From: Candidatus Firestoneibacteriota bacterium
GTDB lineage: Bacteria; Oederibacteriota; D2-FULL-39-29; JBBTED01
Length of the DNA stretch: 61,615 bases
Assembly (NCBI GenBank): GCA_038042445.1
Contig: JBBTED010000063.1
Span: 1 to 61,615, forward strand
Direction: 5' to 3'
The position numbers and the translations under genes were made by a program. Shown here in pieces: positions 8,802-48,998 of this stretch. The notes under the pieces were generated by a model. It was given only the letters and a program-made list of their open reading frames with translations. It did not search any database and was not told the origin of the DNA. Each line of letters starts with the position of its first letter. Positions within the stretch are counted from its first letter, which is position 1.

Positions 8802-9886
8802 AATTCTGTTAATGTTAGTGAAACTCTATGTGTGCCTGTAACACCCTCTGCAAAATTTAATGGGTATATGAATGCATAATCAAGAGTAGAATGGACAAAA
8901 CCCAGTGGAAGTTTCAGACTAATGCCTCCACTTGCATCTGTGTATTTTCTGCTGCCGTAGCTTACTCCTGCTCTTAAACCGAAATTAGTCCATGTGTCAG
9001 GCAAGATGCTTGACCTATTAGCTGATGAATTAGATGCCGATAAATCGGCAACTACAGGACCAAACAACCAGTATTCCACGCCGTTATGGATGCTCCAATC
9101 AATGCCTCTTATTTTAAATTCAAAACTTTCAGTTAAATTATAGTCTAATTTTGCTGAGAAACCTGCTCTTATTATTGATGGAACTGAGCTTGTTGCAGCT
9201 ATACCCATATCCGGCTCATTTATATTTGTCAAAGAAAAACCTAAATTAAACTCTTCAAATATCACATCTTTCATTTTAAATAATGCTCCTATATCTATGC
9301 CAAAATTCCATTTATTTAAAGTAGTAAATAATGTATTTGCTTTTGTCCATTCATTTTCTATATATTTTTTATTTAATGCTTTTATATTTAAGCCAACTGC
9401 CATTTTAAAATTGGGTTCTGTTTTTTGTGCCGATAAATCGGCAACTACATTTTTTGACGGTGATATGGCAAAACTGATGCCATATATACCTTCTGCATAT
9501 CCTGCATCTGCACCTGATAAATTAAATGTAGATGCCATAAGCCCAAGTTTAAAATGCTTGGAAAACGGATAAATATATTCTAATGTTCCGTCATATAAAG
9601 ATTCAGGTATGCCCTGATATAATTTCGTATAAGTGGCAGAAAAAGTCATTTTGTCAATAAAAGCCATACCTGCAGGATTATAGTATAAAGCATTTGCATC
9701 ATCTGCAAGTGCAACAAACGCTTTACCTAAAGCAGAGGGCCTGGCGCCATAACCTGTGTCCATAAAGGCAGCATAAGAAGAAAATGTAAAATGAAAATTG
9801 CAAATTACAAAAGTAAGAATTAAAAAAATATTTCTACTTTTTCTTTTGAATTTTACACTTTGCAATTTACAATTTACAATTTTCAT
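8798..9886 (-). CDS. PorV/PorP-like beta-barrel, copy 2, with two in-frame REP insertions
   Basis: AFMDTGYGARPSALGKAFVALADDANALYYNPAG...GTHRVSLTLTEL; stop TAG is the GTAG of a REP. Confidence 0.8.
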   Translation of the reverse strand: MKIVNCKLQSVKFKRKSRNIFLILTFVICNFHFTFSSYAAFMDTGYGARPSALGKAFVALADDANALYYNPAGMAFIDKMTFSATYTKLYQGIPESLYDGTLEYIYPFSKHFKLGLMASTFNLSGADAGYAEGIYGISFAISPSKNVVADLSAQKTEPNFKMAVGLNIKALNKKYIENEWTKANTLFTTLNKWNFGIDIGALFKMKDVIFEEFNLGFSLTNINEPDMGIAATSSVPSIIRAGFSAKLDYNLTESFEFKIRGIDWSIHNGVEYWLFGPVVADLSASNSSANRSSILPDTWTNFGLRAGVSYGSRKYTDASGGISLKLPLGFVHSTLDYAFIYPLNFAEGVTGTHRVSLTLTEL

Positions 9887-9905
9887 TTTTTTATAATAAT
9901 TTATA

Positions 9906-9947
9906 GCCGATAAATCGGCAACTACAAATCCCCCTTTATCAAGGGGG
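9906..9947. repeat. REP-1 plus CCCCCTTT/AAGGGGG hairpin
   Basis: gccgataaatcggcaactac then ccccctttatcaaggggg. Confidence 0.85.
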
Positions 9948-9958
9948 AAGGAAAATTT

Positions 9959-12900
9959 TCATTTTGCTAATACTATTGTGCCTTTTTTAGCTACAGTATT
10001 GCCTACTTTCAGCATATAAATATATACACCGTCTTCTTCTATATTCCCTTGCTCATTTTTGCCATCCCAGGATAAACTTTCTCCATAACTTGCGGTTATT
10101 TCTTTGATTAGTATTCCTGTTAAATTCCATATTTTTATACTTACTGCTTGAACACTTGCATTTGGGAATGAAAACTGAACAGAGTTAAAACTGCTATCCC
10201 CGCTTAAAGGCATAAATGGATTTGGAAATACTTTCACTTCTGTAATAGGAATTGACTTAACTATAACTGCGAATCTTGAAAGATGATCAGTTTCACCTTC
10301 AACTAAAATATCCTTGCCATCACCAGATACAAGGACAGTTGAAGTTAATTCAGCCCACCTTTTTGAACTTTCATCCCATCTTGCTAATGTTAATTTGTCC
10401 GGAGCATCACTTATTCTAACAGCTCTGTTTGTATCATCTACATAAGTGCCATCTCCTGTAGTGTGCAATGTTATTTTTATTTTGCCGGAAAGCTGGCTTA
10501 CTTTAGACGAAGTACTATTATCAGTAGCCCATATATCATATACTACTACTGTATCTTTTGAACCAATAACTGCAACAGTTACTTCACTTGATAAAACTTT
10601 ATCAATATGAAAATTTAAACTCTTGTCAAGAACACCACCTGGAATATATACTTTTGTTTTATTATCATCTGATGAATAAAGAGAAGCTTCCTCACCTACA
10701 TTCACTAATGTATTAAAATTTATACTTGAATTTTGATATGTTATAGTTGCAGTGCTATCACCTTCAACGCTCGCTGTTATAGTTTTTACTTCTGATTTTG
10801 AAGATTTAACTGTAATTTGAACTTTACCATCAGTATCTGTAACACCAGAAGTTCCACTTACTGTATTACTGGTTCCACCTACTGTAATATTAATTGTCCC
10901 CCCTGGAATAGGGATATTAGCACGAGAGGTCAAAATTGCCGTAATAGTAGCTATACTTATATTATCCGCTCTGACTGAAGAAGAAGAAACAGAAACTGTT
11001 AAAACATTTCCGTTTGCCCACACAACACTTGAACCTGATTCCACAGTGTCCCCATTTGTTCCAACAGTATACCCTATAAATGTAAGTTTTGTGCTATTTG
11101 AAACTTTAACATTTTTACCAGATGAAATATCACTAAAAGTACAACCTGATAATGTTTTAGTTGCACCATTTGAAACGTCTAAATGGACACCACTTGCTTG
11201 CCCATTTGCAAAATCAACTGAATCTAATTTAGTTAATGTAGAAGCACTATTTATAACAAAACCATTTATATTTAAATATGATAATTGCAAACCTGAAACA
11301 TCTACTTCCCCACCTATACATCTCAATCCAAAAAACGAAGCAATATTAACAGAACTGATAGTTGGTTTTGAAGTATTAGTAGACGGGCAATAAAGTTTTC
11401 CGTTTATTGTTATTGTTTTGCCATTATTAAGATACCATGCTGAACCGCTATTTAAAGTAGCAGTTTTCCCTGAAGCAAGAAGGACATCATTAGTTGTCAT
11501 AACACCTGTATTAGTAAGCCCTCCATTTAGAACAAGAATATTTGTGTTTAAAGTTCCTGTATTGGTTAATAAACCTGCTACAGTTAAAGTGCTTGTATCA
11601 TTAGTTGAAAATGTACCACTGTTGCCAAAAGTCCCATTTAAAACCAAATTAGTCGCGTTAATACTTGATACAACAGAATTATTAGTTAATATACCTGTTA
11701 CAGTTAAAGTGTATGAACTCAAATCAATATTATTATTTAATGTAAGATTATTATTTACTGTCCCATTTTTTGTTAATGTAATTGCTCCGGTTAAATCCAG
11801 ATTATACCATGTGGTTGATGTTATAGGATTTGTAGCACCACTTGCACTAACAACTGGAAGATTTGCAGTATTTGAGAATTTAAAAGAACTTGTACTACTT
11901 GATATTGTTAAATCAGCATTTGTTAAAGTTCCTATATTAGCAGCACCTGCCCCACCTTGTGTGGCAGTATTTGTAACACTTGGATTATACGTTTGACCTA
12001 CTACCCATGTGCTTGCTCCTGCATCTATACCTATTCTTCCCACATTCATTGTTCCAGATGAAAGAGCATTTGAACTGGTATTACTTACAGTCATTGTTAC
12101 ATAAGGATTGACATTACCCGCTACATTCCATGTGCTATTTCCTGCATCAATATACGCTTTACCTGTAATTGAACCACCTGATATAGTTGCAGATGTAGAA
12201 GCACCTGTTGTAGAATAGTCCATACTTGCATAAGTATAAACACTACCTCCTACTGTCCAAGTGCTTGTGCCACCATCTATCACTGCATTTCCTGCAATTA
12301 TACCTTGTGTAACTGTCATATCACTTCCATTTGTAGAAGAACTATCCAATAATAAATATACTTTTACAGAACCTGTAATATTAAATGATGCTGAACCTGC
12401 ATTTATTCTTGCTTCAGTATTTGAATCAAAAGTAGAAGCTCCAGCATTTACTGTATCATCATCGGTTTCAGCATCACCAAAATAACGTTGGCGTAAATAT
12501 ATAGATACACTGTCAGAAACATTCACTATCCCACCACTTGCTCCGCTTAGTATAGCTTTACAATTAGTAAAATTTAAAGGAGTATATGTAGCAGAACCCG
12601 AAAGATTTAAAACTCTGTAACAATAAACATTTAAATTAGTACAAGACAAAGTTTTTCCATTTAAATTTAACGTTATAGAAGTATTCGCCAAGGCATTAAC
12701 AGTATTATTATTAATATATACTTCAACAGGCCCTGTGTTTCTCACATCACCAGCAAGAGTAAGTGTTCTGGAAGAACTATTATTAGGATAAATATAGAAT
12801 ATCCCATAATTCTGATATGCAGGCAAAGAAGCATCTGCTGAAAGATTAAAAGCTAAAGCAGTACTTATTGCAGCCGGATTACTAGAAACATCAAGAGAAG

Positions 12901-13831
12901 CTGTAGTGCCGTAATTTTGCAAGACAATCAGATTTGAAACTAAAGAACCTGTTCCGGGTTTTAAAGTACCATATACGTATATACCCGAGCTTGAAACTGT
13001 AGTAGTATTACCTGATTGAGCACAGGTTAAATTGTAAAAACAAGCGTTTGCTGTCCAAGTTCTTGATGCAAGAGTCCCTGTTCCTGTAAGAGTTACTGTG
13101 GATGTAATAGTACTTGTGGCAAAACTTGCATTAGCATTTGACATATCCCAATTTCCAGAAGCAGTTATTTTAGAACCATTTACAGGAAGTATACTTCCAT
13201 AAGCACCTATTGTAACATCATTTGCTGAAAGACCTGTGCTCGAGCTTGCTCCTATTGTTATCTGACCATAGTCATTTGAATCAGTACCAGTAAGTGAAAT
13301 ATCACCTGTTACAATACAATCAAAAGTTGATACAGCTAATATCACATTGGTCCCTGTATTACCATTATCGTATATTGTTAAATTTCCACCAACTGATATA
13401 TTAGCTCCAAGTGTCATTACTGTCCCGGCTGTAGAAGTAATACCTAAATCACCAGTTATAGTTAAAGTATTGCTTACAGTTACAGTATTCGTATAAGCGG
13501 TAATATAAAAATTTGCAATAGATGTAGGTGCAGATGCATCCCAAGTGCAAGCCTTAGTACCTGTAGGAAAAGTTACACTATCCCCAACTACAGGAGCTAC
13601 ATCAAGGTCCCAATTTGCACCTGCAGATGCATTAGCCCCTGCATCACCACCGTCCCAAATCTTATTAGCACTATAGCAAAAAACAGGAGCAAAAATAATC
13701 ATTGCAACTGTTATTATTGTAGTTGCCAATTTATTGGCGATTTTTTGTGAAAATGGACCGGCACCTACTGAGTTCGCCGATAAATCGGCAACTACATCCG
13801 ACAAGAAAGTTTTAAATTTTACACTTTTCAT
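9959..13831 (-). CDS. Large secreted beta-rich surface protein with Ig-like domain and T9SS-like CTD (cargo 2), paralog of cargo 1
   Basis: Shares TGDISLTGTDSND, FYNLTCAQ, DSNTEARI, NPITSTTWYNL with cargo 1; REP cluster in the signal peptide; CTD FPNPFMP...IWNLTG...WDGKN...KKGTIVLAK. Confidence 0.8.
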   Translation of the reverse strand: MKSVKFKTFLSDVVADLSANSVGAGPFSQKIANKLATTIITVAMIIFAPVFCYSANKIWDGGDAGANASAGANWDLDVAPVVGDSVTFPTGTKACTWDASAPTSIANFYITAYTNTVTVSNTLTITGDLGITSTAGTVMTLGANISVGGNLTIYDNGNTGTNVILAVSTFDCIVTGDISLTGTDSNDYGQITIGASSSTGLSANDVTIGAYGSILPVNGSKITASGNWDMSNANASFATSTITSTVTLTGTGTLASRTWTANACFYNLTCAQSGNTTTVSSSGIYVYGTLKPGTGSLVSNLIVLQNYGTTASLDVSSNPAAISTALAFNLSADASLPAYQNYGIFYIYPNNSSSRTLTLAGDVRNTGPVEVYINNNTVNALANTSITLNLNGKTLSCTNLNVYCYRVLNLSGSATYTPLNFTNCKAILSGASGGIVNVSDSVSIYLRQRYFGDAETDDDTVNAGASTFDSNTEARINAGSASFNITGSVKVYLLLDSSSTNGSDMTVTQGIIAGNAVIDGGTSTWTVGGSVYTYASMDYSTTGASTSATISGGSITGKAYIDAGNSTWNVAGNVNPYVTMTVSNTSSNALSSGTMNVGRIGIDAGASTWVVGQTYNPSVTNTATQGGAGAANIGTLTNADLTISSSTSSFKFSNTANLPVVSASGATNPITSTTWYNLDLTGAITLTKNGTVNNNLTLNNNIDLSSYTLTVTGILTNNSVVSSINATNLVLNGTFGNSGTFSTNDTSTLTVAGLLTNTGTLNTNILVLNGGLTNTGVMTTNDVLLASGKTATLNSGSAWYLNNGKTITINGKLYCPSTNTSKPTISSVNIASFFGLRCIGGEVDVSGLQLSYLNINGFVINSASTLTKLDSVDFANGQASGVHLDVSNGATKTLSGCTFSDISSGKNVKVSNSTKLTFIGYTVGTNGDTVESGSSVVWANGNVLTVSVSSSSVRADNISIATITAILTSRANIPIPGGTINITVGGTSNTVSGTSGVTDTDGKVQITVKSSKSEVKTITASVEGDSTATITYQNSSINFNTLVNVGEEASLYSSDDNKTKVYIPGGVLDKSLNFHIDKVLSSEVTVAVIGSKDTVVVYDIWATDNSTSSKVSQLSGKIKITLHTTGDGTYVDDTNRAVRISDAPDKLTLARWDESSKRWAELTSTVLVSGDGKDILVEGETDHLSRFAVIVKSIPITEVKVFPNPFMPLSGDSSFNSVQFSFPNASVQAVSIKIWNLTGILIKEITASYGESLSWDGKNEQGNIEEDGVYIYMLKVGNTVAKKGTIVLAK
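13719..13795. repeat. 77-bp REP-1 cluster translated inside the cargo 2 signal peptide
   Basis: Same length and layout as 8282-8358; encodes VVADLSANSVGAGPFSQKIANKLATT. Confidence 0.85.
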
Positions 13832-13900
13832 TTTTATCTTCTTTGGTGGCTAATTTAGATAGTTTATCCCCTAATATTTTCTCAATTTTTTCCATAATAC

Positions 13901-13959
13901 ACTCCACTTTAACTCCCCTTAATCCCCTCTTTACTAAAGAGGGGAATCAAAGTGGAGTT
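13901..13959. repeat. AACTCCCC...CCCCTCTTTACTAAAGAGGGG...GGAGTT hairpin element overlapping a stop codon
   Basis: Outer IR actccacttt/aaagtggagt and inner cccctctttactaaagagggg; related copies at 37861-37941 and 55057-55113. Confidence 0.85.
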
Positions 13960-14960
13960 CACAATTCTGTTAATGTTACTGAAACTCTGTGTGTTCCTGC
14001 TATGCCTTCAGCAAAACCTACGGGCAGAATAAATGCATAGTCAAACTGAAAATTTGCGAATGGCATAGGGAACCCATAACTTGCACCCATAGTATACTCC
14101 ATAAAATCGCCTGTGCCAATCCCTAATCCACCACGAATACCAACGCCAACTTGTTTAAACCAATACTCTAACCCAAGCCTGTTTTTTACGTGTTTATTTC
14201 TGTAATCAATTTCTGTAGTAAGCAATGCATCTGCCATTTTAAGAGTTACACCGCCTCGGAGTAGTAAAGGAACTTTATCATTACTATACAATTTAATATC
14301 CGGTTCAGTTATATTTTCAAATGAAAAACCAACCATTAACCTGTCAACAATAGGAATATAAAGTAAACCCAAATCAAAAGTTACCCCAAGCAAATTTGTA
14401 TTTTTACCTGTAAAATCAGGGTTTATTTCAGTGTCCTGATTAGTTCCATACTTTTTATTCAAAAGCTTAACTTTAACGCCGAAAAATAAATCCTGATGTT
14501 TTGGGAAAAACTTAATTTCTTTAAGTGTGTTTCCAATAGGATATGCAAAAGCCAAACCAATATTATTTTCATAATAAGTTGCAGGTGAATCCTGCAATCC
14601 AAAATACTGCCAGGAAACACCAAAAACCCCAAGAGCCGAAACAGGATAGATTACACCCGCAAATCCATCAACCAAACCTGGAAACCCAACATATAATTTA
14701 GTATATGTACCAGTAAGTGCAAACTTGTTTAATTTAGCAATACCTGCCACGTTATAATACAGTGAATTAGCATCATCAGCTATTGCCACAAAAGCTTTAC
14801 CCATACCAGCAGGCCTTGCTCCTTCGCCTATATCAACAAATGCAGCATCGGAAGAAAATGCAAAATGCAAAATGCAAAATGCAAAAGTAAGAATGAATAA
14901 AACATTAATCTTTTTTATTTTGAATTTTACACTTTGCATTTTACAATTTACAGTTTTCAT
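13959..14960 (-). CDS. PorV/PorP-like beta-barrel, copy 3
   Basis: AFVDIGEGARPAGMGKAFVAIADDANSLYYN...GTHRVSVTLTEL; heptamer-repeat signal peptide. Confidence 0.8.
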   Translation of the reverse strand: MKTVNCKMQSVKFKIKKINVLFILTFAFCILHFAFSSDAAFVDIGEGARPAGMGKAFVAIADDANSLYYNVAGIAKLNKFALTGTYTKLYVGFPGLVDGFAGVIYPVSALGVFGVSWQYFGLQDSPATYYENNIGLAFAYPIGNTLKEIKFFPKHQDLFFGVKVKLLNKKYGTNQDTEINPDFTGKNTNLLGVTFDLGLLYIPIVDRLMVGFSFENITEPDIKLYSNDKVPLLLRGGVTLKMADALLTTEIDYRNKHVKNRLGLEYWFKQVGVGIRGGLGIGTGDFMEYTMGASYGFPMPFANFQFDYAFILPVGFAEGIAGTHRVSVTLTEL

Positions 14961-14969
14961 TTTATTTTT

Positions 14970-15018
14970 GTAGTCGCTGATTCATCAGCAGTTTTTTCGC
15001 CGATAAATCGGCAACTAC
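14970..15018. repeat. REP-1 inverted doublet (REPIN-like)
   Basis: gtagtcgctgattcatcagc-agttttttc-gccgataaatcggcaactac. Confidence 0.9.
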
Positions 15019-15019
15019 A

Positions 15020-16435
15020 TTATTTTTTATTTTTTTGTTTGTTTAAAAACTCTTCTTCTGCTTCTTCCTCTTTTTTTCTTCTTTCAAGACGCTCTTTTTC
15101 TGCTTTTTCTTTTAATTTTAATTCTTCTTCTTCTTTCTGCCATTCTTCAAACCTTTGTTTTTCTTTTAGTTTCGCTTTTTCCTGTTCTTTTAGTTTGTAT
15201 TCTTCTTCTGACATTTCTGTTTCTTTATTGGTTTCAGTTTTTATTTCTTCCTTTTGTTCAATCTTTTTCATTTCTTCTTCGGTTTCTTTTTCAAGTTTTT
15301 CTTTTTCTTCTTGTGCTGCTTTTTCTTCTTTTAGTTTAGCTTCTTCTTTTTTCTTCTGCTCCATTTTTTCTTTTTCTTCCATTTTTTCCTGTGATTCTTC
15401 ATCTTCAAGTTTTTCTTTTTCTTCTCTTTCTTGCTCTTTGGTTTTAATCACACGAACAAATGGTCGGACAGGTTCCATTATTGCAAAAGAAATTCTATGA
15501 GTCCCAAAACTTCCATCTGCAAAATTAAATGGATAAGTATATGCATAATCAAGCTGACCTTCAATAACATCTAATGAAAAATTATACCCTGCCCCAATAT
15601 TTGCATTCATATATTTATTCATACCTATACCAAAACCAGACCTTAATTCCACTGTGTTTTTCACAAGAGAATATTCAGCACCAACATGAGCTTTCCATTC
15701 TTTATTTCTGTAATCTGCTTCATAACTTGTAAGCAAATCATCTAATAATCTAAGTCCAATCCCAGTTCGCAGTAAAAGAGGAACCTTTTCATCGGACTCT
15801 AATTTCATATTCGGTTGATTAATATTTTCAGCAGATACTCCTATTGAAAGTGTTCCTGGAAAAGGAGAATATAATAACCCTGTATCTACAGAAAAGCCCC
15901 ATATCGCTAACTTGGAAAATACTGGGTTTATATCTGTCCAAAGATTTTTGCCATATTGTTGATTTAATGCCTTGATTTTAAAACCCGCAGATAATTCATG
16001 GCTTTCTGGAAAACCCATTTTAGTCATAATTTCATCTAATACATAGGCATACGAAAAACCTATAGTGTTTTCAAAATAAGTTGCAGAGGCAGCAGATTCA
16101 GAAACATTCAAATGTGTCCAATTTATTCCAACACACCCATATTCATTAGACTCACCCAAAGGCTGAATATAGCCAACAAATCCACCATTTAACCCAGGCA
16201 CTCCTGTATATAATTTAGAATAAGTAGCACTTAAAGTTATTGAAGTCATTCTTGCAATACCTGCTATATTATAATATAGTGAATTCACATCATCAGCAAT
16301 TCCAACATAAGCTTTGCCCATACCCACAGGTCTTGCTCCTTCGCCTACATCCTGGAATGCAGCCTCCACAGAAAATGCAAAATGTAAAATGCAAATTGCA
16401 AAAGTAAGGATCAAGAATTTAAAATGTTTATACAT
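15020..16435 (-). CDS. PorV/PorP-like beta-barrel, copy 4, with a ~140-aa Glu/Lys-rich C-terminal tail
   Basis: AFQDVGEGARPVGMGKAYVGIADD...GTHRISF followed by KEQEREEKEKLE... low-complexity coiled coil. Confidence 0.8.
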   Translation of the reverse strand: MYKHFKFLILTFAICILHFAFSVEAAFQDVGEGARPVGMGKAYVGIADDVNSLYYNIAGIARMTSITLSATYSKLYTGVPGLNGGFVGYIQPLGESNEYGCVGINWTHLNVSESAASATYFENTIGFSYAYVLDEIMTKMGFPESHELSAGFKIKALNQQYGKNLWTDINPVFSKLAIWGFSVDTGLLYSPFPGTLSIGVSAENINQPNMKLESDEKVPLLLRTGIGLRLLDDLLTSYEADYRNKEWKAHVGAEYSLVKNTVELRSGFGIGMNKYMNANIGAGYNFSLDVIEGQLDYAYTYPFNFADGSFGTHRISFAIMEPVRPFVRVIKTKEQEREEKEKLEDEESQEKMEEKEKMEQKKKEEAKLKEEKAAQEEKEKLEKETEEEMKKIEQKEEIKTETNKETEMSEEEYKLKEQEKAKLKEKQRFEEWQKEEEELKLKEKAEKERLERRKKEEEAEEEFLNKQKNKK

Positions 16436-16527: not shown

Positions 16528-16532
16528 AATTA

Positions 16533-24325: not shown

Positions 24326-27025
24326 TTATTTCGCTACTATTATTGTGCCTTTGCCAAGCAGACTATCTGCAAGTTTAATCTGATAAATGTAAACGCCGCT
24401 CTCCACTATGCTTCCATCTTCCTTTTCGCCGGACCAGGATATTCTTGTGCCACTTCCTGACAAAACCCTGATTAGATCACCTGTAATATTCCATATCTTG
24501 ACTTCTGCAGTTTCATAATTATTATTTAAAAAAGAAAAATTAGCGATACTTAAATTAGAATTACTTGAAAGTGGCGTAAAAGGATTTGGTGAAACTTCCA
24601 ATTCTACACTTTTACCTGTTGAATTTACCACGATTGCATATTTGCCAAGCTGAGTAACTTTGCTTGATATAGTTATATCATTTCCACTTATGCTAATTGT
24701 TCCACCAATAGGGATCCAATTCATTCCATTCCAATAAGCTAATGTCAAAGATGTTCTTGCATCACTTAATAAAACTACTGGGTTGGAATTTGCTATTATA
24801 AAACCATCGTATGACTTACAATGCAAAGTTATAGTAACTGCTTTGTTAAGATTTTTTAGAAGTGCATTGCTAACATTATCATAAGCACTAAATTCATAAG
24901 CTGTTACTGCAACAGATGGCTCAAAACTACCAACAGGCGGTGATGTAAGTTTTGTTATGTAGTAAATTGCTCCATTTATAGTTGTCCCTGTTGGTATTGA
25001 TATTTTCACAAGAGAATCCTCAGGATATGTAAATTCGTATGATTCTGCTTTTAGAACCAATCCACCACCATTTAATTCTTCAGTTGCTGAAACAAAACTC
25101 GTTGGCTCTGAAGTCACTATGGGCCTTGTCCAACCATCTATTGTATCCTTAAAATTAGCAAAAAATGAAGCGCCTTTATACATTCTTGATTCTGTTCCTT
25201 TAGTATATATATCTAAAACATCCTGATCTGAAATAGGAAATTTATACAGTGCAAAATCTGAAATTATTGCATTCACATTATAATTCTTGCCTCCACCAAT
25301 ATAAATATATGGACCTAATATTTCAGGAAGCCGTGTATTTGAACCAGTTCCAGCTTTCACTCCATCTACATATAAAGTAATATACCTATCCCACCATTTA
25401 ATGACAATATTATGCCATTCATAACCAGTCCAACCTGCGCCTGCAGTATTAAAATTTGGAGCACTATACTGTGTTGTGCCTACAGGCCCACCCCATACTG
25501 CAAAATACAATCTATTATCTGTATCCCGATATATTATAAACTGGTGATAATCAGTTGCCACATTTTCAGAAAATAGAACATTATATGTGCCATCACTACC
25601 TGTCCACCTTGGATTTATCCACATAGATATACTACCACTCGTTATATCAAATATACCATTTGTTGGATATGCAAGACGTTCAGGTGATCTTATTGGATAA
25701 GCTGAAGTAACTATAACATCGGTAAAAACATAACTTGTTCTTGGGACCACAATATTAGAATCTAACCAATCCCTTTCAAGTTGATAACAATCAACCCAAA
25801 CACTTCTTCCTGCAATACTATCTGCTTTTTTAACTTTAACACCACAAAACCACATTACATTTGTTACTCCTGTAAAATATGCAAATATGCGGTACCAACC
25901 ATTAACAATAGGAACAGAATAAGTTGTAACTGGAACATCATAAGATACGGAAGCAGTAGCAGCATGTGTAGCAGCAGTTGTTCCAGAACTCCCTCTTACG
26001 ACTCCCAAAAAACTTGTAGTAGTTACACTGGTATACTGCATTATTTCATTATCAATCTTTAAATAACCATTAGTCGCTGGGAAATTAGTAGTTGAAGTAA
26101 CAACAATTATAGAAGTACTACTATTAACAGCATAAGTCAATTGTGATTCCAAATTTGTTGTAGCAAAAATAGAGCAGACTGAAATAGGATTGGTTCCATC
26201 ATAATAAACATAAGCAGATGCAACATGAGGAGTCGAAGTCAATATTCTTAACATATAAAAACTGGCATCTGTTGTTGTAGAGTAATTTGTAACTTTAGCA
26301 GAATAAGTTCCATTTAAAGCACGTGTATTATCTATCACAGCACCTATTCCAGTTTCTGCGAGCCAACTCCTGGGAGAACCAGAAGATACTTCAGAAGTTT
26401 CAAAACTTGAGTCTGGAATAAGATTTTTAACTCCCTGCTCCTGTAATATACCTTTATCAAATTTTCCTGCTACAAATCTTGGAATATTGCGGTTAAGACT
26501 TTTAATTTTATTATCTATTGGATCTAAATAAGTGGCAACACCATCAGTTTCAGCACCACTTGTTATCATATCAGGCCTTGAAAAAACACCTGGAACAACT
26601 GTATAAATATTTTTTAAATCTGATGGCGCTAAATCTGTCTCCTGTGGTGCATCATAATATATATAATAATTACTGTCACTACTATTTGCAGCAATTGCTG
26701 TCTGGAGTTTAAACCATGTTTCATTTACTGCAACATAATCCCTATCAAGTTGGACATTTTTTGAACCATCCCAGTAGACAATTCGTAAATCTTTCCTATC
26801 AGACTGAATTTTACCAGCAGTAACCAAAGAAGATGTATCAAAACTTGTTCTCACAACATATCCTTTAGGCACAGCATAAGCACCTGTTGAAATTGTTAAT
26901 TGCCGCCTGTTATGATATTTCCCATTCCACCAATCAACAGCAGAAGCAGAAGAAATAAATGCAAAATGTAAAATGAAGAATGCAAAATGCAAAATTTGTA
27001 TTTTTTTCACTAATAATTTTCTCAT
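24326..27025 (-). CDS. Secreted DUF2341-like/LamG-like protein with T9SS-like CTD (cargo 5)
   Basis: DWWNGKYHNRRQLTI; SGSISMWI...LYVDG...ISDFALY; PNPFTP...IWNITG...GKGTIIVAK; paralogous to cargo 3. Confidence 0.75.
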   Translation of the reverse strand: MRKLLVKKIQILHFAFFILHFAFISSASAVDWWNGKYHNRRQLTISTGAYAVPKGYVVRTSFDTSSLVTAGKIQSDRKDLRIVYWDGSKNVQLDRDYVAVNETWFKLQTAIAANSSDSNYYIYYDAPQETDLAPSDLKNIYTVVPGVFSRPDMITSGAETDGVATYLDPIDNKIKSLNRNIPRFVAGKFDKGILQEQGVKNLIPDSSFETSEVSSGSPRSWLAETGIGAVIDNTRALNGTYSAKVTNYSTTTDASFYMLRILTSTPHVASAYVYYDGTNPISVCSIFATTNLESQLTYAVNSSTSIIVVTSTTNFPATNGYLKIDNEIMQYTSVTTTSFLGVVRGSSGTTAATHAATASVSYDVPVTTYSVPIVNGWYRIFAYFTGVTNVMWFCGVKVKKADSIAGRSVWVDCYQLERDWLDSNIVVPRTSYVFTDVIVTSAYPIRSPERLAYPTNGIFDITSGSISMWINPRWTGSDGTYNVLFSENVATDYHQFIIYRDTDNRLYFAVWGGPVGTTQYSAPNFNTAGAGWTGYEWHNIVIKWWDRYITLYVDGVKAGTGSNTRLPEILGPYIYIGGGKNYNVNAIISDFALYKFPISDQDVLDIYTKGTESRMYKGASFFANFKDTIDGWTRPIVTSEPTSFVSATEELNGGGLVLKAESYEFTYPEDSLVKISIPTGTTINGAIYYITKLTSPPVGSFEPSVAVTAYEFSAYDNVSNALLKNLNKAVTITLHCKSYDGFIIANSNPVVLLSDARTSLTLAYWNGMNWIPIGGTISISGNDITISSKVTQLGKYAIVVNSTGKSVELEVSPNPFTPLSSNSNLSIANFSFLNNNYETAEVKIWNITGDLIRVLSGSGTRISWSGEKEDGSIVESGVYIYQIKLADSLLGKGTIIVAK

Positions 27026-27289: not shown

Positions 27290-28261
27290 TCATTTAAACA
27301 CAACTCCGAACTTATGTGTTCCATACACAGATTTAATTCCACTTAAGGAATAGATAAACGCATAATCAATACCTATCCCATGTTTTAAATAAATACCTAA
27401 ACCTGTTGTTGCATCCCAAAAATTATAATTGCCAAAACCTGTGCCAAGACGTAAAGCTATATTATCACCAAATAAAAAGTGTTCAAGTCCAATTCGTATT
27501 TTATAAAATGCGGCACGAAAATCAACATCTGATGCAAAAATGGTATCAGCTTTTGCACCTAATCTATAGGCAAAACCGCTACGAATACTAAATGACACAG
27601 GATTTGAATCACCTGTAAAACTTAAAGATGGCGTATTTGCATTCAAAAATCCAGCCCCAAAGCTAAACCGAGCAGATGGCTTAAATAAAATACCTACATC
27701 TACTGCAAAAGTAGAATCATAAAATTTTATTAACGCAGAATTTATATCTGTGTATTGATTCTTTTCAAGAGAAATTGATAACATTTTAAAATTTGCACCT
27801 ACATATATCTCTCCAAAAGTTATTTCAAATACTGCTAAAGGTAAAACAAAATTATCCATAACTTTAACACCGTAGCCAAAATGAAATTCTTCTTCCCCAT
27901 AAGAAGAAACAACACCTCTTCCTGTCCAACCTAAAGATACTACACCCAAATCAGATGGAATTGGATGCGTATAATAAATTGCTCCATCAAATATTTTGCT
28001 TTCATCTGTAAGACCAATGTATAATCTTGAATATTGCAAAGACAATTCACGTCGGGCAAGAAACCCAAGCCCTGCAGGATTATAAAAATACGTTGCACCA
28101 TCATCTGCAATTGCAGTATAAGCACCACCTAAAGCATCTGCACGTGGAGAAATACCGGAATCCTGAAAGGCAGCAAAAGAAGAAGTAGCAAATTGCAAAA
28201 TGAAAAATGCAATAGCAAAAATCAAAGAAATATTTTTTTTGTTAGTTTTTTTACTTTTCAT
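27290..28261 (-). CDS. PorV/PorP-like beta-barrel, copy 5
   Basis: AFQDSGISPRADALGGAYTAIADD...YFYNPAGL...IDYAF...GTHKFGVVFK. Confidence 0.8.
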   Translation of the reverse strand: MKSKKTNKKNISLIFAIAFFILQFATSSFAAFQDSGISPRADALGGAYTAIADDGATYFYNPAGLGFLARRELSLQYSRLYIGLTDESKIFDGAIYYTHPIPSDLGVVSLGWTGRGVVSSYGEEEFHFGYGVKVMDNFVLPLAVFEITFGEIYVGANFKMLSISLEKNQYTDINSALIKFYDSTFAVDVGILFKPSARFSFGAGFLNANTPSLSFTGDSNPVSFSIRSGFAYRLGAKADTIFASDVDFRAAFYKIRIGLEHFLFGDNIALRLGTGFGNYNFWDATTGLGIYLKHGIGIDYAFIYSLSGIKSVYGTHKFGVVFK

Positions 28262-29033: not shown

Positions 29034-31675
29034 TTTGCTACTATTACTGTGCCGTTATATCTGGAATTTCCTACTTCTATTTGCCAGATATGTATTCCGC
29101 TTTCAACAACTGTATTAGATGAATTAACACCTGTCCATTCAATATTTTGTGATGAAGAAAATGTATCCTCTCGGATCAAAGCGCCCTCAAGATTGAAAAT
29201 TTTAAGAGACACTGAATTACCTTCAGCATTATCAACACTAAATACAACTTTATTATTAGGAGAATAATTTGGGGTAAATGGATTTGGGCCAAAAGCAATA
29301 CCGCCTTTCTTTTCAACCATAACCATTATAGTAAGTGCCTGGCTAATAAGACCTGTGCCTTTTGCTTCAACTATATAAAATCCAATCATTTTAGTTTCGT
29401 TTGAAGACAACGTATAACTAACCAAACCTGTTAAATCTGTACTTGTATTTACAACATATTGGCTTTTATCTGGCCTTGTAATTGTAATAGTTATCGCTAT
29501 ATTAGACAAAGGATTCCCTGCTTCGTCTTTTGCCGACCAATTTAAAACAACACTATTGCCTGTTATAATATTTTGATTGCCAGATGTTGGAACTAAATTC
29601 TTACTGCTTTCAGAACTAACACTAATTGTTGGCTCAGATAAAACTACAGGTCTTTTATATGCATTTAAGCTATTTGCAAATGGAGCAAAAAATACTGCAT
29701 CAAAAAGACACAAAGGCTGATATGTTCTACTATAAATTGCCCTTATTTCTGCATCAGTTAATACTCTATCATAAATAGCTACATCTGAAATAATAGCTTC
29801 AGGATTATTATTACCAGGTGCAAAATACATTCCGTTACTATAATCTCCTACAATAGACGATTTCATAGAATTTGCATCACTACTTGCCTGGTAATCCGAA
29901 TTAACAAAAATTTTTGCACCTTCACTACCCCAGGTATATGCAAGGAAAATCCAGCCATCTGTATCTAAATGTGTAAGACTGCCAAAATAACTTGAGTTTG
30001 ATATGTAATAGTCTAAATTCTTCAACAAAAATGGAGATGGCAAAACAAAATCCACATACGAACCAGATAATTTAAATACATCTGTCAATTGCCTACGCCA
30101 TCCTGTAAATTTCATATTGTTACTATCGGACCCATAAAATCTTAATATATGATATTCTGACGCTGTTACAATATAAAAATAATTGTACACACCTATATCA
30201 CCTGCAATACTACCATATCTTGTATCAGTCGTATAAAACTCAGGTTTCACCCACATAACCAAAGTTCCTTTATCTCTATTAAAATTTCCTGAAGTAATTG
30301 GATAATATAATGTTTCAACAGCACGTGTGGTATTCGAACTTGGATTTGCAACTAATGGTGGAGTAAAACTTGTAGGATGAAAACTTTCTTCAATCTGAAC
30401 ACAATCTATATCTACAGAACCACCACCATCTTGATAATAGAAAAACGCCACCTGTAAATATCTAACGTTTGAGGTCGGAACTATATATTTAAGCCAAAAT
30501 CTCTCCCACGTATTTGCCTTTGTGTTTCTTATATTCATTGGAGTTATGTCAATTCCAGAACCTGTTGCAGGAATATTAGCATTATAAGTAGTACTATCTA
30601 CTTTCCATCCTATAGGAGCAGCTGATGAAGTTATATTAGAACCAGTAGAATCAATATTTCTTATTCCTACCATATATCTTGCAGAAGTACTACTTGCCCT
30701 TCCATACCAGGAAATTATAACTGTTTTCCCATCCCAATTTGTTGATGAGCTACTAGGATCATACAGCATAACATTTTTTGCAATTGCTATTCCACAATTA
30801 GTACTTGTTCCATTTCCAAGACGCACATAACCACTACCTTTTGCTCCACCATCGCTTTGCCGGGATATTCTACCGCTTGAACCACCTATGCTCGTATCCC
30901 AATCCGTAGAAGGATTTATACCTATATCATTCCAATTTGAAAGATCTGTTTCAAAATCTGTATTTATAATATAATTTCTGACATATCGTTCAAGCAGTAT
31001 TCCTCTGTCATACTTGCCGTAAGTAAAACGTGGTGTATTAGTTCCTACTTCTGTTAAATCGTCCGGCTGGCATGCACTTGACCCTCTGGTAAAATTTGGT
31101 ATTTGCGCCACAAATATTTTATCAAGATTTTTTGGTGGAAATTCTGTCTCTTTTGAATTTCCATAATAGATATAATAATTTTCATCTATTGCACCTGTAA
31201 GTATATTTGTTTGTAATCTAAAATAAGTGGAAGAAACTGAATATACCAAACCAGTATCTAATGTTATATCATTATAATTGGAGTCCTGGTCAGGAACATA
31301 ATATCTATCTAACTCTGTCCATGCTAAACCGTTCCAATAAAGAATACGCCAGTCTTTTCTATCCGGCGTGATTCCTGTAAATGCCTGAAGCCCGCCTGTT
31401 TTTTGCAAAGCAATTGTATCAACTGAAAGTTTGACAACATAATTGGTATCTAATGTATAAGGTACAGTATTTGTAATTGTAATTTTTTTTCTGTATGTAT
31501 AGCCGGTAAAATCTTTATTTCCCACTATAGTAGGCCAAGGCAAAGAAGCAGATATACAAGCAGAAACAAATGCAAATTGCAAAATGTAAAATGCAAAATG
31601 TAAAATTAAAGAATTAGTAATAAATTTTCTTTTTCTTAATTTTGCAATTTTCATTTTGCAATTTTCATTTTGCAT
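29030..31675 (-). CDS. Secreted DUF2341-like/LamG-like protein with T9SS-like CTD (cargo 6)
   Basis: YTYRKKITITN; KGTLVMWVKP...ISDVAIYDRVLT; GPNPFTP...IFNLEG...NGTVIVAK. Confidence 0.75.
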   Translation of the reverse strand: MQNENCKMKIAKLRKRKFITNSLILHFAFYILQFAFVSACISASLPWPTIVGNKDFTGYTYRKKITITNTVPYTLDTNYVVKLSVDTIALQKTGGLQAFTGITPDRKDWRILYWNGLAWTELDRYYVPDQDSNYNDITLDTGLVYSVSSTYFRLQTNILTGAIDENYYIYYGNSKETEFPPKNLDKIFVAQIPNFTRGSSACQPDDLTEVGTNTPRFTYGKYDRGILLERYVRNYIINTDFETDLSNWNDIGINPSTDWDTSIGGSSGRISRQSDGGAKGSGYVRLGNGTSTNCGIAIAKNVMLYDPSSSSTNWDGKTVIISWYGRASSTSARYMVGIRNIDSTGSNITSSAAPIGWKVDSTTYNANIPATGSGIDITPMNIRNTKANTWERFWLKYIVPTSNVRYLQVAFFYYQDGGGSVDIDCVQIEESFHPTSFTPPLVANPSSNTTRAVETLYYPITSGNFNRDKGTLVMWVKPEFYTTDTRYGSIAGDIGVYNYFYIVTASEYHILRFYGSDSNNMKFTGWRRQLTDVFKLSGSYVDFVLPSPFLLKNLDYYISNSSYFGSLTHLDTDGWIFLAYTWGSEGAKIFVNSDYQASSDANSMKSSIVGDYSNGMYFAPGNNNPEAIISDVAIYDRVLTDAEIRAIYSRTYQPLCLFDAVFFAPFANSLNAYKRPVVLSEPTISVSSESSKNLVPTSGNQNIITGNSVVLNWSAKDEAGNPLSNIAITITITRPDKSQYVVNTSTDLTGLVSYTLSSNETKMIGFYIVEAKGTGLISQALTIMVMVEKKGGIAFGPNPFTPNYSPNNKVVFSVDNAEGNSVSLKIFNLEGALIREDTFSSSQNIEWTGVNSSNTVVESGIHIWQIEVGNSRYNGTVIVAK

Positions 31676-42216: not shown

Positions 42217-42233
42217 TTGTATTGCGTTTTTCT

Positions 42234-42316
42234 GTAGTTGCCGATTTATCGGCGATTTTTAAAACAGTGGTTTGTCTTTTTAGAACAAACCACAACGCCG
42301 ATAAATAGACAACTAC
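42234..42316. repeat. REP-1 doublet with an internal hairpin
   Basis: gtagttgccgatttatcggc...gtggtttgtc/gaacaaaccac...gccgataaatagacaactac. Confidence 0.85.
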
Positions 42317-42327
42317 ATCTTACTATC

Positions 42328-42762: not shown

Positions 42763-42812
42763 TTCACCTCCATTGTGTCTTAGATATAGAACAGAAGACA
42801 AAAAATATACAA

Positions 42813-42835
42813 GCAAGGCTAAAGCCTTGCCCTAC
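42813..42835 (-). repeat. GTAGGGCAAGGCTTTAGCCTTGC REP
   Basis: Same GGCTTTAGCC core as 2111-2137, 4528-4550 and 60687-60706. Confidence 0.8.
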
Positions 42836-42851
42836 ATAAAAAATTTTATCA

Positions 42852-44084: not shown

Positions 44085-44099
44085 TTTTTTAAAATTATT

Positions 44100-44142
44100 G
44101 TAGTTGCTGATTTATCAGCTATGCCGATAAATCGGCAACTAC
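44100..44142. repeat. REP-1 doublet whose GTAG supplies the pilB stop codon
   Basis: Minus strand GAG-TAG-TTGCCGATTTATCGGC. Confidence 0.9.
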
Positions 44143-46948: not shown

Positions 46949-46977
46949 ATTTTAACTGTATTTTCATATACAGTCAA
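46949..46977 (-). promoter_or_regulatory. Sigma70-type promoter heading the TPR-pilB-pilC operon
   Basis: TTGACT-17 bp-TAAAAT. Confidence 0.55.
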
Positions 46978-47022
46978 TAGTTTTATTTAAAAAAGTAGTG
47001 GGGACACTGAATGAATGAAATT

Positions 47023-47106
47023 GTCACGCTGAATTTATTTCAGCATTTAATAAAAACAATGTGTTTTGAGATCCTGAAACAAGTTCAGGATGACGCTTCG
47101 CGTCAT
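47023..47106. repeat. GTCA...TGAC double hairpin ending in ATGACGCTTCGCGTCAT over a stop codon
   Basis: gtcacgctgaatttatttcagc...gatcctgaaacaagttcaggatgacgcttcgcgtcat. Confidence 0.85.
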
Positions 47107-48998
47107 TTTGCAACTAACAGGATTTCTACTTTTCTATTTCTTATATCACTTTTATCTGATTTAGTTGAACCATAAGCTAAAACTATTATTCTCTGCCTTT
47201 CTATTTTTTCTTTATTTATAAAAAAATCAAATACTGCATTTGCTCTATCCATAGAAACCTTCAAAAGATCACTTGCAGTTTCTGTTTTGTCTGAATACCC
47301 TTTAATTTGAACAGAATACGATGAATATTTTCTTATCATTTCAGCAGCTTTAGATAATTCTTTTTCATCTGATGGTCTCAATGTAGCATTACCATTATTA
47401 AAAAATATATTGGCAAGTGTAATAACCAAAACTTTGCTTGACGCCCTCAACAAATCCACAATAATTACGCCATTACTTTCTAATGTCCCACCTGCATTAC
47501 TTACAATACTAACTGCAAAATTATATATTCCCGGATCTGCAATTTTACCGTTATTATCTTTACCATCCCATTTAAAAGTATCTGGTGGATTTATAAAGGT
47601 TTTTATAACTTTATCATCTTTTAAAATATTAAATGTTTTTGTCCTTATATCATTTTTATCAAGATTCATCTTCATAATTATTTTTGTTTCTTCCCGGGAT
47701 GAAGGAGAAAAAATTTGTGGAGATACAAATACTGATAATTTTGGTTTAAATGTCTTTACTGATATAGTTTTTGTTGGAGATACTGATTTAAACCCGCTAC
47801 TGTCTGTAGCACTAAAAGAAACAATATAATCTCCGGGATCAATAACTTTACCTTTATCACTTTTACCATCCCATTTGATTTCTTTTGAAATATCTTTATA
47901 TCCATAAAATGTTTTAAAAACCGTATCGCTTTTATCCTTAATCGCCAATTGCCAGCTTTCAGGATTTCCTTCAACAGTAATTTTAAAATTAAAAATAATT
48001 TCGCTTGTAACTCCTAATATAAATTCAGTAGAGCTCATATCAAATACAGCAGAAATTGGGCAACAAGACAAAACAGTTCCATTATCGCCAACTATCCAAC
48101 CACCCCAATCCGCAAAATATCCACCATATAAACTTTCCTGTGTATCAATTGCTTCCGGATTCCATGTGCGTCCTCTATCAGTTGAATGCAATAGTGCGCC
48201 ACTTCCAACAATTGCCCAAATATTAGAGTATCCAATAGCATAAATGTTTTTTATTGCTTCTCCACCAATTTTAGTAAGCAATTTCCAGGTTGAACCTGAA
48301 TCAGAAGATTTTATTATGGTTCCAAATGCCCCAGCAGCATATCCTTCATAGCTTCCTAAAAAATTTATTCCATAAAGATTATCTGTAACTTCTACATTTT
48401 TAACCTGCCACTTAGTTCCACCATCAGAACTCATAACAATAGTTCCACCATTGCCAACAGCCCATATATTATTAGACTTTGCATAAACTCCATAAAGATC
48501 AGTTGCTACAGAAGTCTGTAAAGAAATCCATGTTTTGCCACCATCACGTGTAGTAACAATTGTACCATTTGTACCTACAGCAAATCCTTTATAAAAACTG
48601 GAAAATGTTATCCCAAAAAGTGAATTCATTACATCACATTTAGCATTTTGCCAGGTATTTCCTCCATCAGTAGTATATATTGCAGTTCCTCCAATACCAA
48701 CAGCACAACCTGAACGGTCATTTGAAAAATATACTCCGTTGAGATTTACCCCTGTTCCACTATCTTGCTGTTTCCATGTATCGCCAGCATCATTTGTATA
48801 AAAAACCGCTCCCTGATTTCCAACTATCCAACCATTCTTTCCATCTTCAAGAAAATGCACTGCTCGTAAATCCACATTTGTTACTGGCAAGGTCTTTTTT
48901 GTCCATGTTGCTGATTCTACAGAAAATGCAAAATGTAGAATGTAAAGCATAAAAACTATGATTGTATTTTTTTTAATAGCATTTCTTGCCATTATCAT
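47103..48998 (-). CDS. YCF48/BNR-type beta-propeller + two FlgD-like Ig domains + OmpA-like domain
   Basis: Repeated GWIVG..G....T.DGG.TW; two WDGK...G....PG.Y; C-terminal IFF...A.L...IKGYSD...SMDRA...NRKVEI; start placed after AGGGGG. Confidence 0.8.
   Translation of the reverse strand: MIMARNAIKKNTIIVFMLYILHFAFSVESATWTKKTLPVTNVDLRAVHFLEDGKNGWIVGNQGAVFYTNDAGDTWKQQDSGTGVNLNGVYFSNDRSGCAVGIGGTAIYTTDGGNTWQNAKCDVMNSLFGITFSSFYKGFAVGTNGTIVTTRDGGKTWISLQTSVATDLYGVYAKSNNIWAVGNGGTIVMSSDGGTKWQVKNVEVTDNLYGINFLGSYEGYAAGAFGTIIKSSDSGSTWKLLTKIGGEAIKNIYAIGYSNIWAIVGSGALLHSTDRGRTWNPEAIDTQESLYGGYFADWGGWIVGDNGTVLSCCPISAVFDMSSTEFILGVTSEIIFNFKITVEGNPESWQLAIKDKSDTVFKTFYGYKDISKEIKWDGKSDKGKVIDPGDYIVSFSATDSSGFKSVSPTKTISVKTFKPKLSVFVSPQIFSPSSREETKIIMKMNLDKNDIRTKTFNILKDDKVIKTFINPPDTFKWDGKDNNGKIADPGIYNFAVSIVSNAGGTLESNGVIIVDLLRASSKVLVITLANIFFNNGNATLRPSDEKELSKAAEMIRKYSSYSVQIKGYSDKTETASDLLKVSMDRANAVFDFFINKEKIERQRIIVLAYGSTKSDKSDIRNRKVEILLVAK

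Follow-up and report, generated by a model that had tools for sequence, protein, structure and literature searches.

Heptamer Arrays in a Cluster of Surface-Protein Genes

The window analyzed here is the complete contig JBBTED010000063.1 (61,615 nt, hereafter C63) of the assembly GCA_038042445.1, which represents an uncultured groundwater bacterium (Candidatus Firestoneibacteriota) and comprises 181 contigs, 2.81 Mb in total, with a GC content of 32%. In this window, a cluster of surface-protein genes contains arrays of an imperfect 7-nt unit, A[T/A/C]TTT[G/A/T]C. An array that reads ATTTTGC on the sense strand is referred to as a T-rich arm, and an array that reads GCAAAAT as an A-rich arm. 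In 11 genes of the genome, belonging to at least six unrelated families of exported proteins, the T-rich arm forms the hydrophobic core (h-region) of a predicted signal peptide. The families are PorP/PorV-like barrels (five genes), LamG-type cargo proteins (two genes), a BNR/OmpA protein, a secretin (contig C90), an M16 peptidase (C11), and a PKD/FlgD_ig protein (C44). The 11 leaders correspond to 10 T-oriented arrays located in open reading frames (ORFs) plus the array at 26961-26995.

All long ORFs around the leaders of the window are on the minus strand, and the coordinates of the arms are listed in Table 1. The gene 8798-9886 encodes a PorP/SprF-PorV-like barrel according to Pfam; BLAST ties to it the paralogs 13959-14960, 15020-16435, and 27290-28261, and the group also includes a C44 gene. 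The LamG-type cargo genes 24326-27025 and 29030-31675 have CHU_C/FlgD_ig tails, and the BNR/FlgD_ig/OmpA gene 47103-48992 is also given as 47103-49064 (both Pfam). The most regular leader is that of the gene 13959-14960. Its A-rich arm is open in one of three frames, which is the frame of the gene, and a 32-nt loop separates this arm from CTTTTGC, three copies of ATTTTGC, and ATTTTCT; the translated leader is MKTVNCKMQSVKFKIKKINVLFILTFAFCILHFAFSSDA|AFVDIGEGARP.

An earlier note, made from the sequence of the window, had listed seven sites with this repeat. Heptamer runs were found in phase at every one of them, on the minus (coding) strand, the run at 48921 being weak. The same note proposed that one hairpin-like repeat provides the start codon, the charged n-region, and the h-region. 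Both arms are present in three genes of the window, 8798-9886, 13959-14960, and 29030-31675; the other four have the T-rich arm alone. The non-coding run reported near 53623 is likewise present; it is preceded by a promoter-like TTGACA...TATAGT and followed by a second repeat, GTCATTCTGAACGAAGTGAAGAATC. In the cargo gene 9959-13831, the A-arm-like start is followed by an in-frame repetitive extragenic palindromic (REP) sequence of the GTAG type and then by an ordinary h-region.

Table 1. Positions of heptamer arms and related arrays in the window; a vertical stroke inside a peptide marks the putative cleavage site
Feature	Positions	Strand	Sequence or reading
A-rich arm with start codon, barrel gene 13959-14960	14917..14960	-	ATGAAAAC then GTAAATT GTAAAAT GCAAAGT GTAAAAT TCAAAAT; codes MKTVNCKMQSVKFK
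T-rich arm, barrel gene 13959-14960	14853..14887	-	4 perfect and 1 partial ATTTTGC; predicted h-region (LT)FAFCILHFAF, c-region SSDA|AF
A-rich arm with start codon, barrel gene 8798-9886	9850..9886	-	MKIVNCKLQSVKFK
Degenerate T-rich arm, barrel gene 8798-9886	9786..9806	-	predicted h-region ...FVICNFHFTF, c-region SSYA|AF
T-rich arm alone, barrel gene 15020-16435	16370..16404	-	leader MYKHFKFLILTFAICILHFAFSVEA|AF; ordinary GGAGG and ATG start
T-rich arm alone, LamG-type cargo gene 24326-27025	26961..26995	-	leader MRKLLVKKIQILHFAFFILHFAFISSASA|VDWW
T-rich arm alone, barrel gene 27290-28261	28188..28215	-	leader …LIFAIAFFILQFATSSFA|AF
A-rich arm with start codon, LamG-type cargo gene 29030-31675	31639..31675	-	MQNENCKMKIAKL
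T-rich arm, 5 units, LamG-type cargo gene 29030-31675	31572..31606	-	LILHFAFYILQFAF, then VSA
Weak T-rich run, about 3 poor units, BNR/FlgD_ig/OmpA gene 47103-48992	48921..48948	-	leader MARNAIKKNTIIVFMLYILHFAFSVESA|T
Non-coding A-rich array, 4 units, 5' leader of rpoN (52109-53584)	53624..53651	-	no frame open through
3-unit A-arm-like fragment, cargo gene 9959-13831	13809..13831	-	GAAAAGT GTAAAAT TTAAAAC; start MKSVKFK; read by eye, below the threshold of the weight matrix

The Repeat Unit and Its Coding Capacity

The logo of 122 units is A-[T88/A18/C15]-T-T-T-[G74/A30/T16]-C, and the exact consensus is present in 37 of them. Read in the A-rich orientation, the triplet at the junction between units is ATG, TTG, or GTG in 121 of the 122 units, so potential start codons occur at the junctions of any A-rich arm. 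The T-rich arm consists of Ile, Leu, Phe, His, Ala, and Cys codons and the A-rich arm of Lys, Asn, Gln, and Cys codons. As the earlier note had stated, (ATTTTGC)n is translated as ILHFAFC and (GCAAAAT)n as AKCKMQN, and the consensus is free of stop codons in three of three frames. The claim that no frame contains stops is thus correct for the consensus, but it fails for the actual A-rich arms. The frequent variants GTAAAxT and (T)GAAAAT introduce TAA or TGA, in one frame each, and because of these variants four of the six leaders that contain both arms are open in a single frame.

The A-rich arm is probably translated in the two-arm leaders. The six leaders are open in 2, 1, 1, 1, 1, and 2 of the three frames, and in all six the frame of the gene, continuous with the T-rich arm and the mature protein, is open (probability by chance, 0.0055); the six genes had been selected because they have both arms, without regard to open frames.

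Signal-Peptide Features and Homologs of the Leaders

By their features and position, the 11 leaders are predicted to be Sec-type signal peptides, cleaved by signal peptidase I. The net charge ahead of the h-region ranges from +1 to +7. The best 10-residue hydropathy window has a value of 2.0-3.3 in 10 leaders and 1.68 in the PKD gene of C44. The h-regions are followed by c-regions of 3-6 residues with small residues at -3/-1, which were read by eye as SSDA|A, VEA|A, ASA|V, SFA|A, VFA|G, AFA|G, VSA|G, SYA|A, and ESA|T.

The mature domains start 3-6 residues past the T-rich arm. Consequently, starts downstream of this arm are impossible, and the objection that the true starts lie beyond the repeat is excluded by the homology boundaries. 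One database entry starts the gene referred to as barrel 2 at its second ATG. Among 31 matches to barrel 2, with source names in Elusimicrobia, all 11 that were inspected (P0002-P0012) have a conserved part that starts with AF(F/E)DIGEGARP (also given as AF(F/V)DIGEGARP), right after the position of the array; 10 of them carry unrelated leaders, for example MKKMSVVVIGILFLSASYSYC, and one is N-terminally truncated.

The earlier note had asked whether orthologs have ordinary leaders, and they do. The nearest comparison genomes belong to the same class only; in each of 12 such genomes the leader of the best match is short and ordinary, and its lag-7 nucleotide identity is 0.20-0.34, versus 0.45-0.64 here. 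The genome itself encodes 19 barrel paralogs: five with arrays of at least 3 units, one with a degenerate look-alike (3561-4553), and 13 with other leaders. The LamG paralog 16533-19601 also has an ordinary leader, MIRKYCIIIGIVMLLQGMAQA|VPWW; its alignment with the gene 24326-27025 begins at residue 19 and residue 27, respectively, at AQA|VPWW versus ASA|VDWW. The occurrence of the repeat in unrelated families was confirmed as well, as the families, at least six on 4 contigs, share no detectable homology.

Enrichment of the Heptamer Arrays

The window contains 33 matches to the heptamer (2 units, at most 2 mismatches) versus 3.5 ± 2.0 in 100 dinucleotide shuffles, none of which reaches 33. For the whole genome, 59 matches (3 units, at most 3 mismatches) were found versus 5 in a control read backward, and in 40 further genomes, all from this class or this phylum, the same settings give 0-7 matches each. 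When in-phase units were chained with a position weight matrix (PWM), the genome has 43 arrays of at least 3 units, 3-7 units in length, versus 6 in the reversed genome; a stricter threshold leaves 27 arrays versus 1. The genome-wide search suggested in the earlier note thus finds arrays, many of them non-coding, well beyond the seven listed sites. Chance in an AT-rich genome was ruled out by the shuffles, by the reversed and backward controls, and by copies in loci with 50-74% GC.

The lag-7 nucleotide identity of the 11 leaders is 0.39-0.65, and that of three ordinary leaders of the window is 0.22-0.37. The earlier note had named codon-shuffled leaders as a control. In 8 of the 11 leaders the periodicity exceeds this control, at most 21 of 2000 synonymous-codon shuffles reaching the observed identity.

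Placement across the Genome

Gene starts were taken from our own simple ORF calls (2340 ORFs). For 37 of the 43 arrays, the position relative to a called start falls in the range -120..+150 nt, which takes in 22.5% of the genome (binomial P = 1.4e-18). Ten of the 14 T-oriented arrays are located at +16..+145 nt, in leader codons, and four lie 10-105 nt upstream. The 23 A-oriented arrays occupy the range -116..+48: 11 are wholly upstream, often starting within a few nucleotides of the preceding stop codon, and at the other 12 the array and the called start overlap. Of the six arrays away from called starts, four (two on C18 and one each on C59 and C150) resemble weak or chance 3-unit matches. 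By gene context, 22 arrays are located between tandem genes, 2 between divergent genes, and none between convergent genes; 18 lie in called ORFs, mostly in leaders, and 1 is at a contig edge. Because 90% of the gene pairs in the genome are co-directional, association with 5' ends and association with 3' ends are inseparable. About a quarter of the arrays are translated leaders.

The upstream A-rich arrays precede rplB, fusA, rpoN, argH, ribE, nuoB, glgA, xseA, an aconitase-like gene, and an aminotransferase gene, names that were read from the N-termini and are not Pfam results; rpsF is a further housekeeping gene preceded by an untranslated A-rich arm. In the non-coding A-rich arrays, 18 of 33 frames are open. 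Lone A-rich arms also provide a start codon and n-region, namely in a gene for a solute-binding lipoprotein (C121, with AGGAGG before it), in that for a 306-aa exported protein (C77), and in the cargo gene 9959-13831. Promoter readings of the arrays (sigma-70 -35/-10, sigma-54 -24/-12, and Bacteroidetes-type -7), considered by eye, were dropped because the 7-nt spacing gives no canonical spacers and because arrays sit inside operons (rpsG-fusA).

In total, seven inverted pairs were found: six coding, in one gene each on C11, C44, and C90 and in three genes on C63, and one non-coding, on C36. A 21-nt stretch at the junction of loop and arm, TTATTCATTCTTACTTTTGCA, is identical in barrel 2 and in the unrelated secretin gene of C90. 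A second small repeat, GTCATYCTGAACRAAGTGAAGRATC, is nested in frame in the leaders of the M16 peptidase gene on C11 (3975-4030) and of the barrel gene on C44 (11450-11515), and it adjoins many non-coding heptamer arrays; in the window it is located at 53585-53623. That the repeat exists at the level of DNA, irrespective of coding, is supported by the non-coding copies before cytoplasmic genes and by the copies in other phyla described below.

The Same Heptamer in Other Phyla

Other genomes were scanned for arrays of at least 4 units, using one genome per species and an IUPAC pattern that spans several related units, and 80 loci were fetched. At least 123 loci were found in Bacteroidota, Acidobacteriota, Planctomycetota, Bacillota, Verrucomicrobiota, Omnitrophota, the candidate phyla radiation (CPR), and others, many of them in surroundings of 50-74% GC. 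Both orientations are present in 14 of the 80 fetched loci, with the A-rich arm first in 13 of the 14. At two of the 80, in metagenome-assembled genomes (MAGs) of a Verrucomicrobia (L057) and an Oscillospiraceae (L074) member, the arms bracket a gene of the family PF05635 (23S rRNA intervening-sequence protein, a four-helix bundle; 94 and 102 bits).

At least four loci have an array that is read in a leader: L091 (Prevotella, MKKLLILFTLHFSLFTSTAQQ), L080 (Cloacimonadota), L037 (Blastocatellia, both arms), and L086 (Brocadiia). In the last, a MAG, a two-arm hairpin of the GCAAAAT type at 380-640 encodes a 41-residue leader, MQNAKCKMQSAKCK..., before a pilin-like AFTLIEMLVV. A search of metagenome contigs with barrel 2 found no close relative, only one distant barrel (L021) and one contig that matches the leader alone (L022). 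In the latter, a contig with GC-richer genes, ATGAAAACTGTAAATTGCAAAATGAAAAATGTAAAT...ATTTTGCAATTTGCACTTTACAATTTGCATTTTG is located between two genes.

Comparison with Known Repeats

Heptanucleotide tandem repeats dispersed over the genome are known from cyanobacteria as short tandemly repeated repetitive (STRR) sequences. TAACTGA repeats have been described at gene boundaries in Beggiatoaceae, cyanobacteria, and Bacteroidetes (MacGregor, 2015, PMC4679880) and GGGAATC/GGGGAYT repeats in Xanthomonas and Nostoc (Rehm et al., 2015, PMC4692102). As far as the relevant passages of these two papers go, both resemble the arrays of this genome in being short 7-nt arrays (2 to about 7 units) with tens to hundreds of dispersed copies of unexplained function, located tens of nucleotides from start or stop codons of co-directional genes, including ribosomal-protein operons. 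Convergent inverted pairs are also frequent, with 70-75 in Xanthomonas (PMC4692102, same passages). In contrast, TAACTGA has stops in all forward frames, which gives no read-through (as described in parts of PMC4679880), and the G-rich Xanthomonas and Nostoc repeats are discussed as quadruplexes (in parts of PMC4692102). The term "signal peptide" does not occur in PMC4692102, and the in-ORF cases of section 15 in PMC4679880 are peripheral inserts; as far as these texts go, neither paper reports arrays that act as signal peptides. The unit found here differs from both in being AT-rich, with a consensus that is stop-free on both strands, and in the share of its arrays that are translated as leaders.

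The nearest parallel for a coding array is the "coding repeat" of Neisseria opa, CTCTT pentamers in leader-peptide codons (PMC3960869, relevant passages). In both cases a non-triplet tandem repeat encodes part of an outer-membrane protein leader. In opa, however, the repeats are perfect and variable in number, with proven switching at about 1e-3 per generation (same passages), whereas the arrays here are imperfect, show no length variation in contigs, have an inverted partner, and have non-coding copies at unrelated genes. The PF05635 cassettes have the same GCAAAAT/ATTTTGC arms with the A-rich arm first and a gene between them; the copies of this genome are gene-less, with a loop of 10-30 nt or a loop that contains another small repeat.

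Palindromic repeat inserts that are translated in frame are known as Rickettsia palindromic elements. Palindromic amphipathic repeat coding elements (PARCELs) are likewise translated in genes and tied to membrane-targeted proteins (Roske et al., 2010, PMC2996958, in the passages that concern this point). The arrays have in common with both a translated palindromic repeat that is tolerated because it is open. PARCELs and Rickettsia elements differ in being internal amphipathic domains of at least 25 residues, not N-terminal signal peptides, and they are not built from heptamers. The arrays do not belong to REP sequences or REPINs (REP doublets forming hairpins), as they are heptamer arrays without a GTAG/CGTC tag; the Y1_Tnp ORFs 23635-24243 and 8398-8658 adjoin a different repeat, GTAGTTGCCGATTTATCGGC.

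Origin of the Leaders

The element is probably a gene-less copy of a widespread, hairpin-forming heptamer cassette that resides at gene boundaries and has been reused as a signal peptide. Such a cassette would have the layout (GCAAAAT)n-loop-(ATTTTGC)n, with the A-rich arm first. A copy that immediately precedes the mature portion of an exported protein would provide the start codon, the n-region, and the h-region of a Sec-type signal peptide, and unique sequence would add just the short c-region and the cleavage site (SSDA|A, VEA|A, ASA|V, etc.). The cassette, or a lone T-rich arm, may thereby have replaced the ordinary leaders in the 11 genes. Before many other genes, lone A-rich arms are untranslated or read as n-regions. 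The cassette would be tolerated, and then kept, where its arms are read as n- and h-region. The structure of the repeat suits this use: a copy can work as a leader because of its ATG/GTG/TTG junctions, its stop-free T-rich arm, and its near self-complementarity. Since the cassette and its reverse complement are nearly alike, both starting with the A-rich arm, the order of charged and then hydrophobic residues arises in either orientation, and since the period is 7 nt, the same class of peptide arises in any frame. The sequences show the repeat itself, its placement, the homology boundaries, and its occurrence across phyla; from these we infer how the cassette spreads, that the leader peptides drive export, and that insertion or conversion, not convergence, produced the leaders.

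Several results weigh against this explanation. Seven of the 11 leaders are located in the window, in one surface-protein gene cluster and within 40 kb, and local duplication with gene conversion among neighbors could therefore explain much of the spread. The lag-7 identity is no better than that of codon shuffles in three leaders, those of the genes 15020-16435 (275/2000), 47103-48992 (1277/2000), and the C11 gene (740/2000). His and Cys are unusual for an h-region, and the simple cleavage-site heuristic was crude and unusable, misplacing sites (for example, after the first Cys). The array-to-start distances rest on the simple ORF calls of this analysis, and the excess of A- over T-orientation among the non-coding arrays is modest (11 vs. 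4). No general orientation rule was found elsewhere, with the A-rich arm on the sense strand in 7 and the T-rich arm in 6 of the 13 judgeable loci among the 80; the strand of the flanks is unclear in 47. Finally, this genome, at a completeness of 90%, has no PF05635 match at E <= 0.01, and the best tblastn match has E = 2.3. Nothing in it shows movement of the cassette, and no target-site duplication or empty site was found, although none was looked for, as the nearest genomes are related at class level only.

Three other explanations were considered. The two-arm leaders might primarily be regulatory RNA hairpins, in which an AU-rich stem would hide the start codon or offer a site for a double-strand RNase, the coding of the leader being secondary; temperature, a helicase, or translation coupling, for example, would then control the surface-protein genes jointly. 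The folding predictions agree with such a role. For the six two-arm leaders, the predicted minimum free energy (MFE) is -23.7 to -37.1 kcal/mol (z -2.5 to -6.3 vs. dinucleotide shuffles), with the AUG in or at the foot of the stem, and masking of the start codon by the stem is itself a thermodynamic prediction. The sense RNAs of the leaders near 9.8 and 14.9 kb have 5-6 G-U pairs and are predicted to be 7-11 kcal/mol more stable than the antisense RNAs, and the concentration of seven leaders in one gene cluster would fit co-regulation. However, the sense RNA is the more stable in only 4 of the 6, five leaders have the T-rich arm alone, so that the hairpin is dispensable for leader use, and many genes have the A-rich arm alone. 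Moreover, arrays are also found ahead of genes for ribosomal proteins and metabolism and in phyla unrelated to this one, no Rfam family matches the window, and coupled translation could prevent the stem from forming. A primarily regulatory role therefore appears unlikely. Still less is to be said for descent of one ancestral leader in duplicated genes, homogenized by gene conversion, with the periodicity and the non-coding copies incidental. The clustering within 40 kb, the five leaders in one barrel family, and the degenerate version FLILMLFTLSFAFSSYA in the closest paralog, 3561-4553, fit this history, as does the stronger conservation of the leader relative to the mature part (53/63 vs. 515/865 identical nucleotides between barrels 2 and 3), which equally counts in favor of a DNA-level cassette. 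Against it stand the leaders in at least six families without detectable homology on 4 contigs, at least 11 non-coding copies, arrays of this type in many phyla, including those around the PF05635 gene, and the 12 of 12 same-class orthologs without an array leader. Taken together, these observations make ordinary descent very unlikely.

The earlier note had also raised phase variation. The arrays would then be contingency loci, in which strand slippage adds or removes one heptamer (7 mod 3 = 1) and so switches surface-protein genes on and off, as in Neisseria opa. The unit is indeed not a multiple of 3, the arrays are in the 5' coding part of genes for surface or exported proteins, and 4-5 perfect units are present at 14853-14887, in the C90 secretin gene, and on C44 at 8746. 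Most arrays, however, are imperfect, the reading frame is intact in each of the 11 leaders of this assembly, and arrays are also found before essential genes. Every metagenome that contains the locus is from groundwater. Contigs of 4 runs from 4 of these studies show no 7-nt indel across 12000-31900, which is weak evidence, as rare variants are invisible in contigs. The arrays near 16.4, 26.9, and 28.2 kb (three runs) and the T-rich arm near 31.6 kb are bridged without gaps, and the array near 14.9 kb is not bridged. Contigs end at the repeats, and the joints at 14890/14892/16403/31606-31653 reflect other copies of the repeat linked to different DNA rather than a rearranged locus. Phase variation is thus unsupported, and we regard it as highly improbable. 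The reuse of a heptamer cassette as a signal peptide is the explanation retained here.

Neighboring Repeats and Genes

GTAG-type REP hairpins (GTAGTTGCCGATTTATCGGC...) flank leaders at 9895-9930, 13740-13800, 14965-15010, and 31700-31775. Read in frame, these REPs give VVADLSA/VVADSSA; two are located inside the barrel gene 8798-9886, and others are at the N-termini of the ORFs 4660-8772, 9959-13831, and 31781-35218. Two frames encode IS200-like Y1 transposases (similar to REP-associated tyrosine transposases, RAYTs; Pfam: Y1_Tnp), at 23635-24243 and 8398-8658, and the latter is fused by read-through to the 1370-aa cargo ORF 4660-8772.

Sequencing depth in the bin 26608-27271 is 165-1385 in four metagenome runs versus about 2-13 in neighboring bins, and many loose ends fall at 27100-27136. 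These data suggest that a short repeat, very abundant and shared by many genomes or loci, lies at about 27100-27135, between the genes 24326-27025 and 27290-28261. The stop codon of a HepT-like ribonuclease ORF (28258-28602) overlaps the start codon of the barrel gene 27290-28261 (ATGA). A set of genes similar to those for type II secretion or type IV pili (secretin, PilM/PilO-like proteins, pseudopilins, T2SSF, and T2SSE) is located at 35254-46879 and is followed by rpoN.

Other heptamers are also present. At 57310-57344, the linker of an FtsK-like ORF (55852-58035) contains five perfect TCAAAAA units, translated in frame as FKNQKSKIKNQKK, and a related run at 58231-58260, in the next gene upstream, is read as ENQKSNTKNQ. 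Further heptamer families, detected with Tandem Repeats Finder (TRF), form adjacent inverted pairs of the TAGACAA/AGTCTAT and GTTCTAT/ACTTAGA types, and a perfect 7-unit TATTGTG array was also found; these are located at C7 3413-3510, C59 21273-21353 and 76451-76533, C87 4561-4631, C86 15692-15768, and C160 6940-6988.

Implications

Heptamer-hairpin cassettes may conceivably act across phyla as a plug-in that creates or renews N-terminal export signals, a broader proposal that we put forward tentatively and consider doubtful at present. Insertion in any orientation or phase before a mature domain would then yield a start codon, an n-region, and an h-region at once. If this proposal is true, uncultured bacteria would routinely draw signal peptides and long pilin leaders from repeat DNA, and the hairpin might add control at the RNA level as a by-product. 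If the peptides do export, the arrays would also matter for annotation, as gene callers place starts inconsistently within them and repeat-masking would remove real leaders.

Literature searches, which did not cover subscription journals, found no paper on heptamer arrays encoding signal peptides. Signal peptides are usually seen as slowly diverging parts of genes, whereas in this genome a simple repeat, selfish or neutral, appears to provide them wholesale in at least six families, and sporadically in other phyla. If the peptides export, the arrays would represent a concrete way, open to testing, in which proteins acquire or exchange export signals, and the long-unexplained heptamer repeats of bacteria would have one clear phenotypic consequence.

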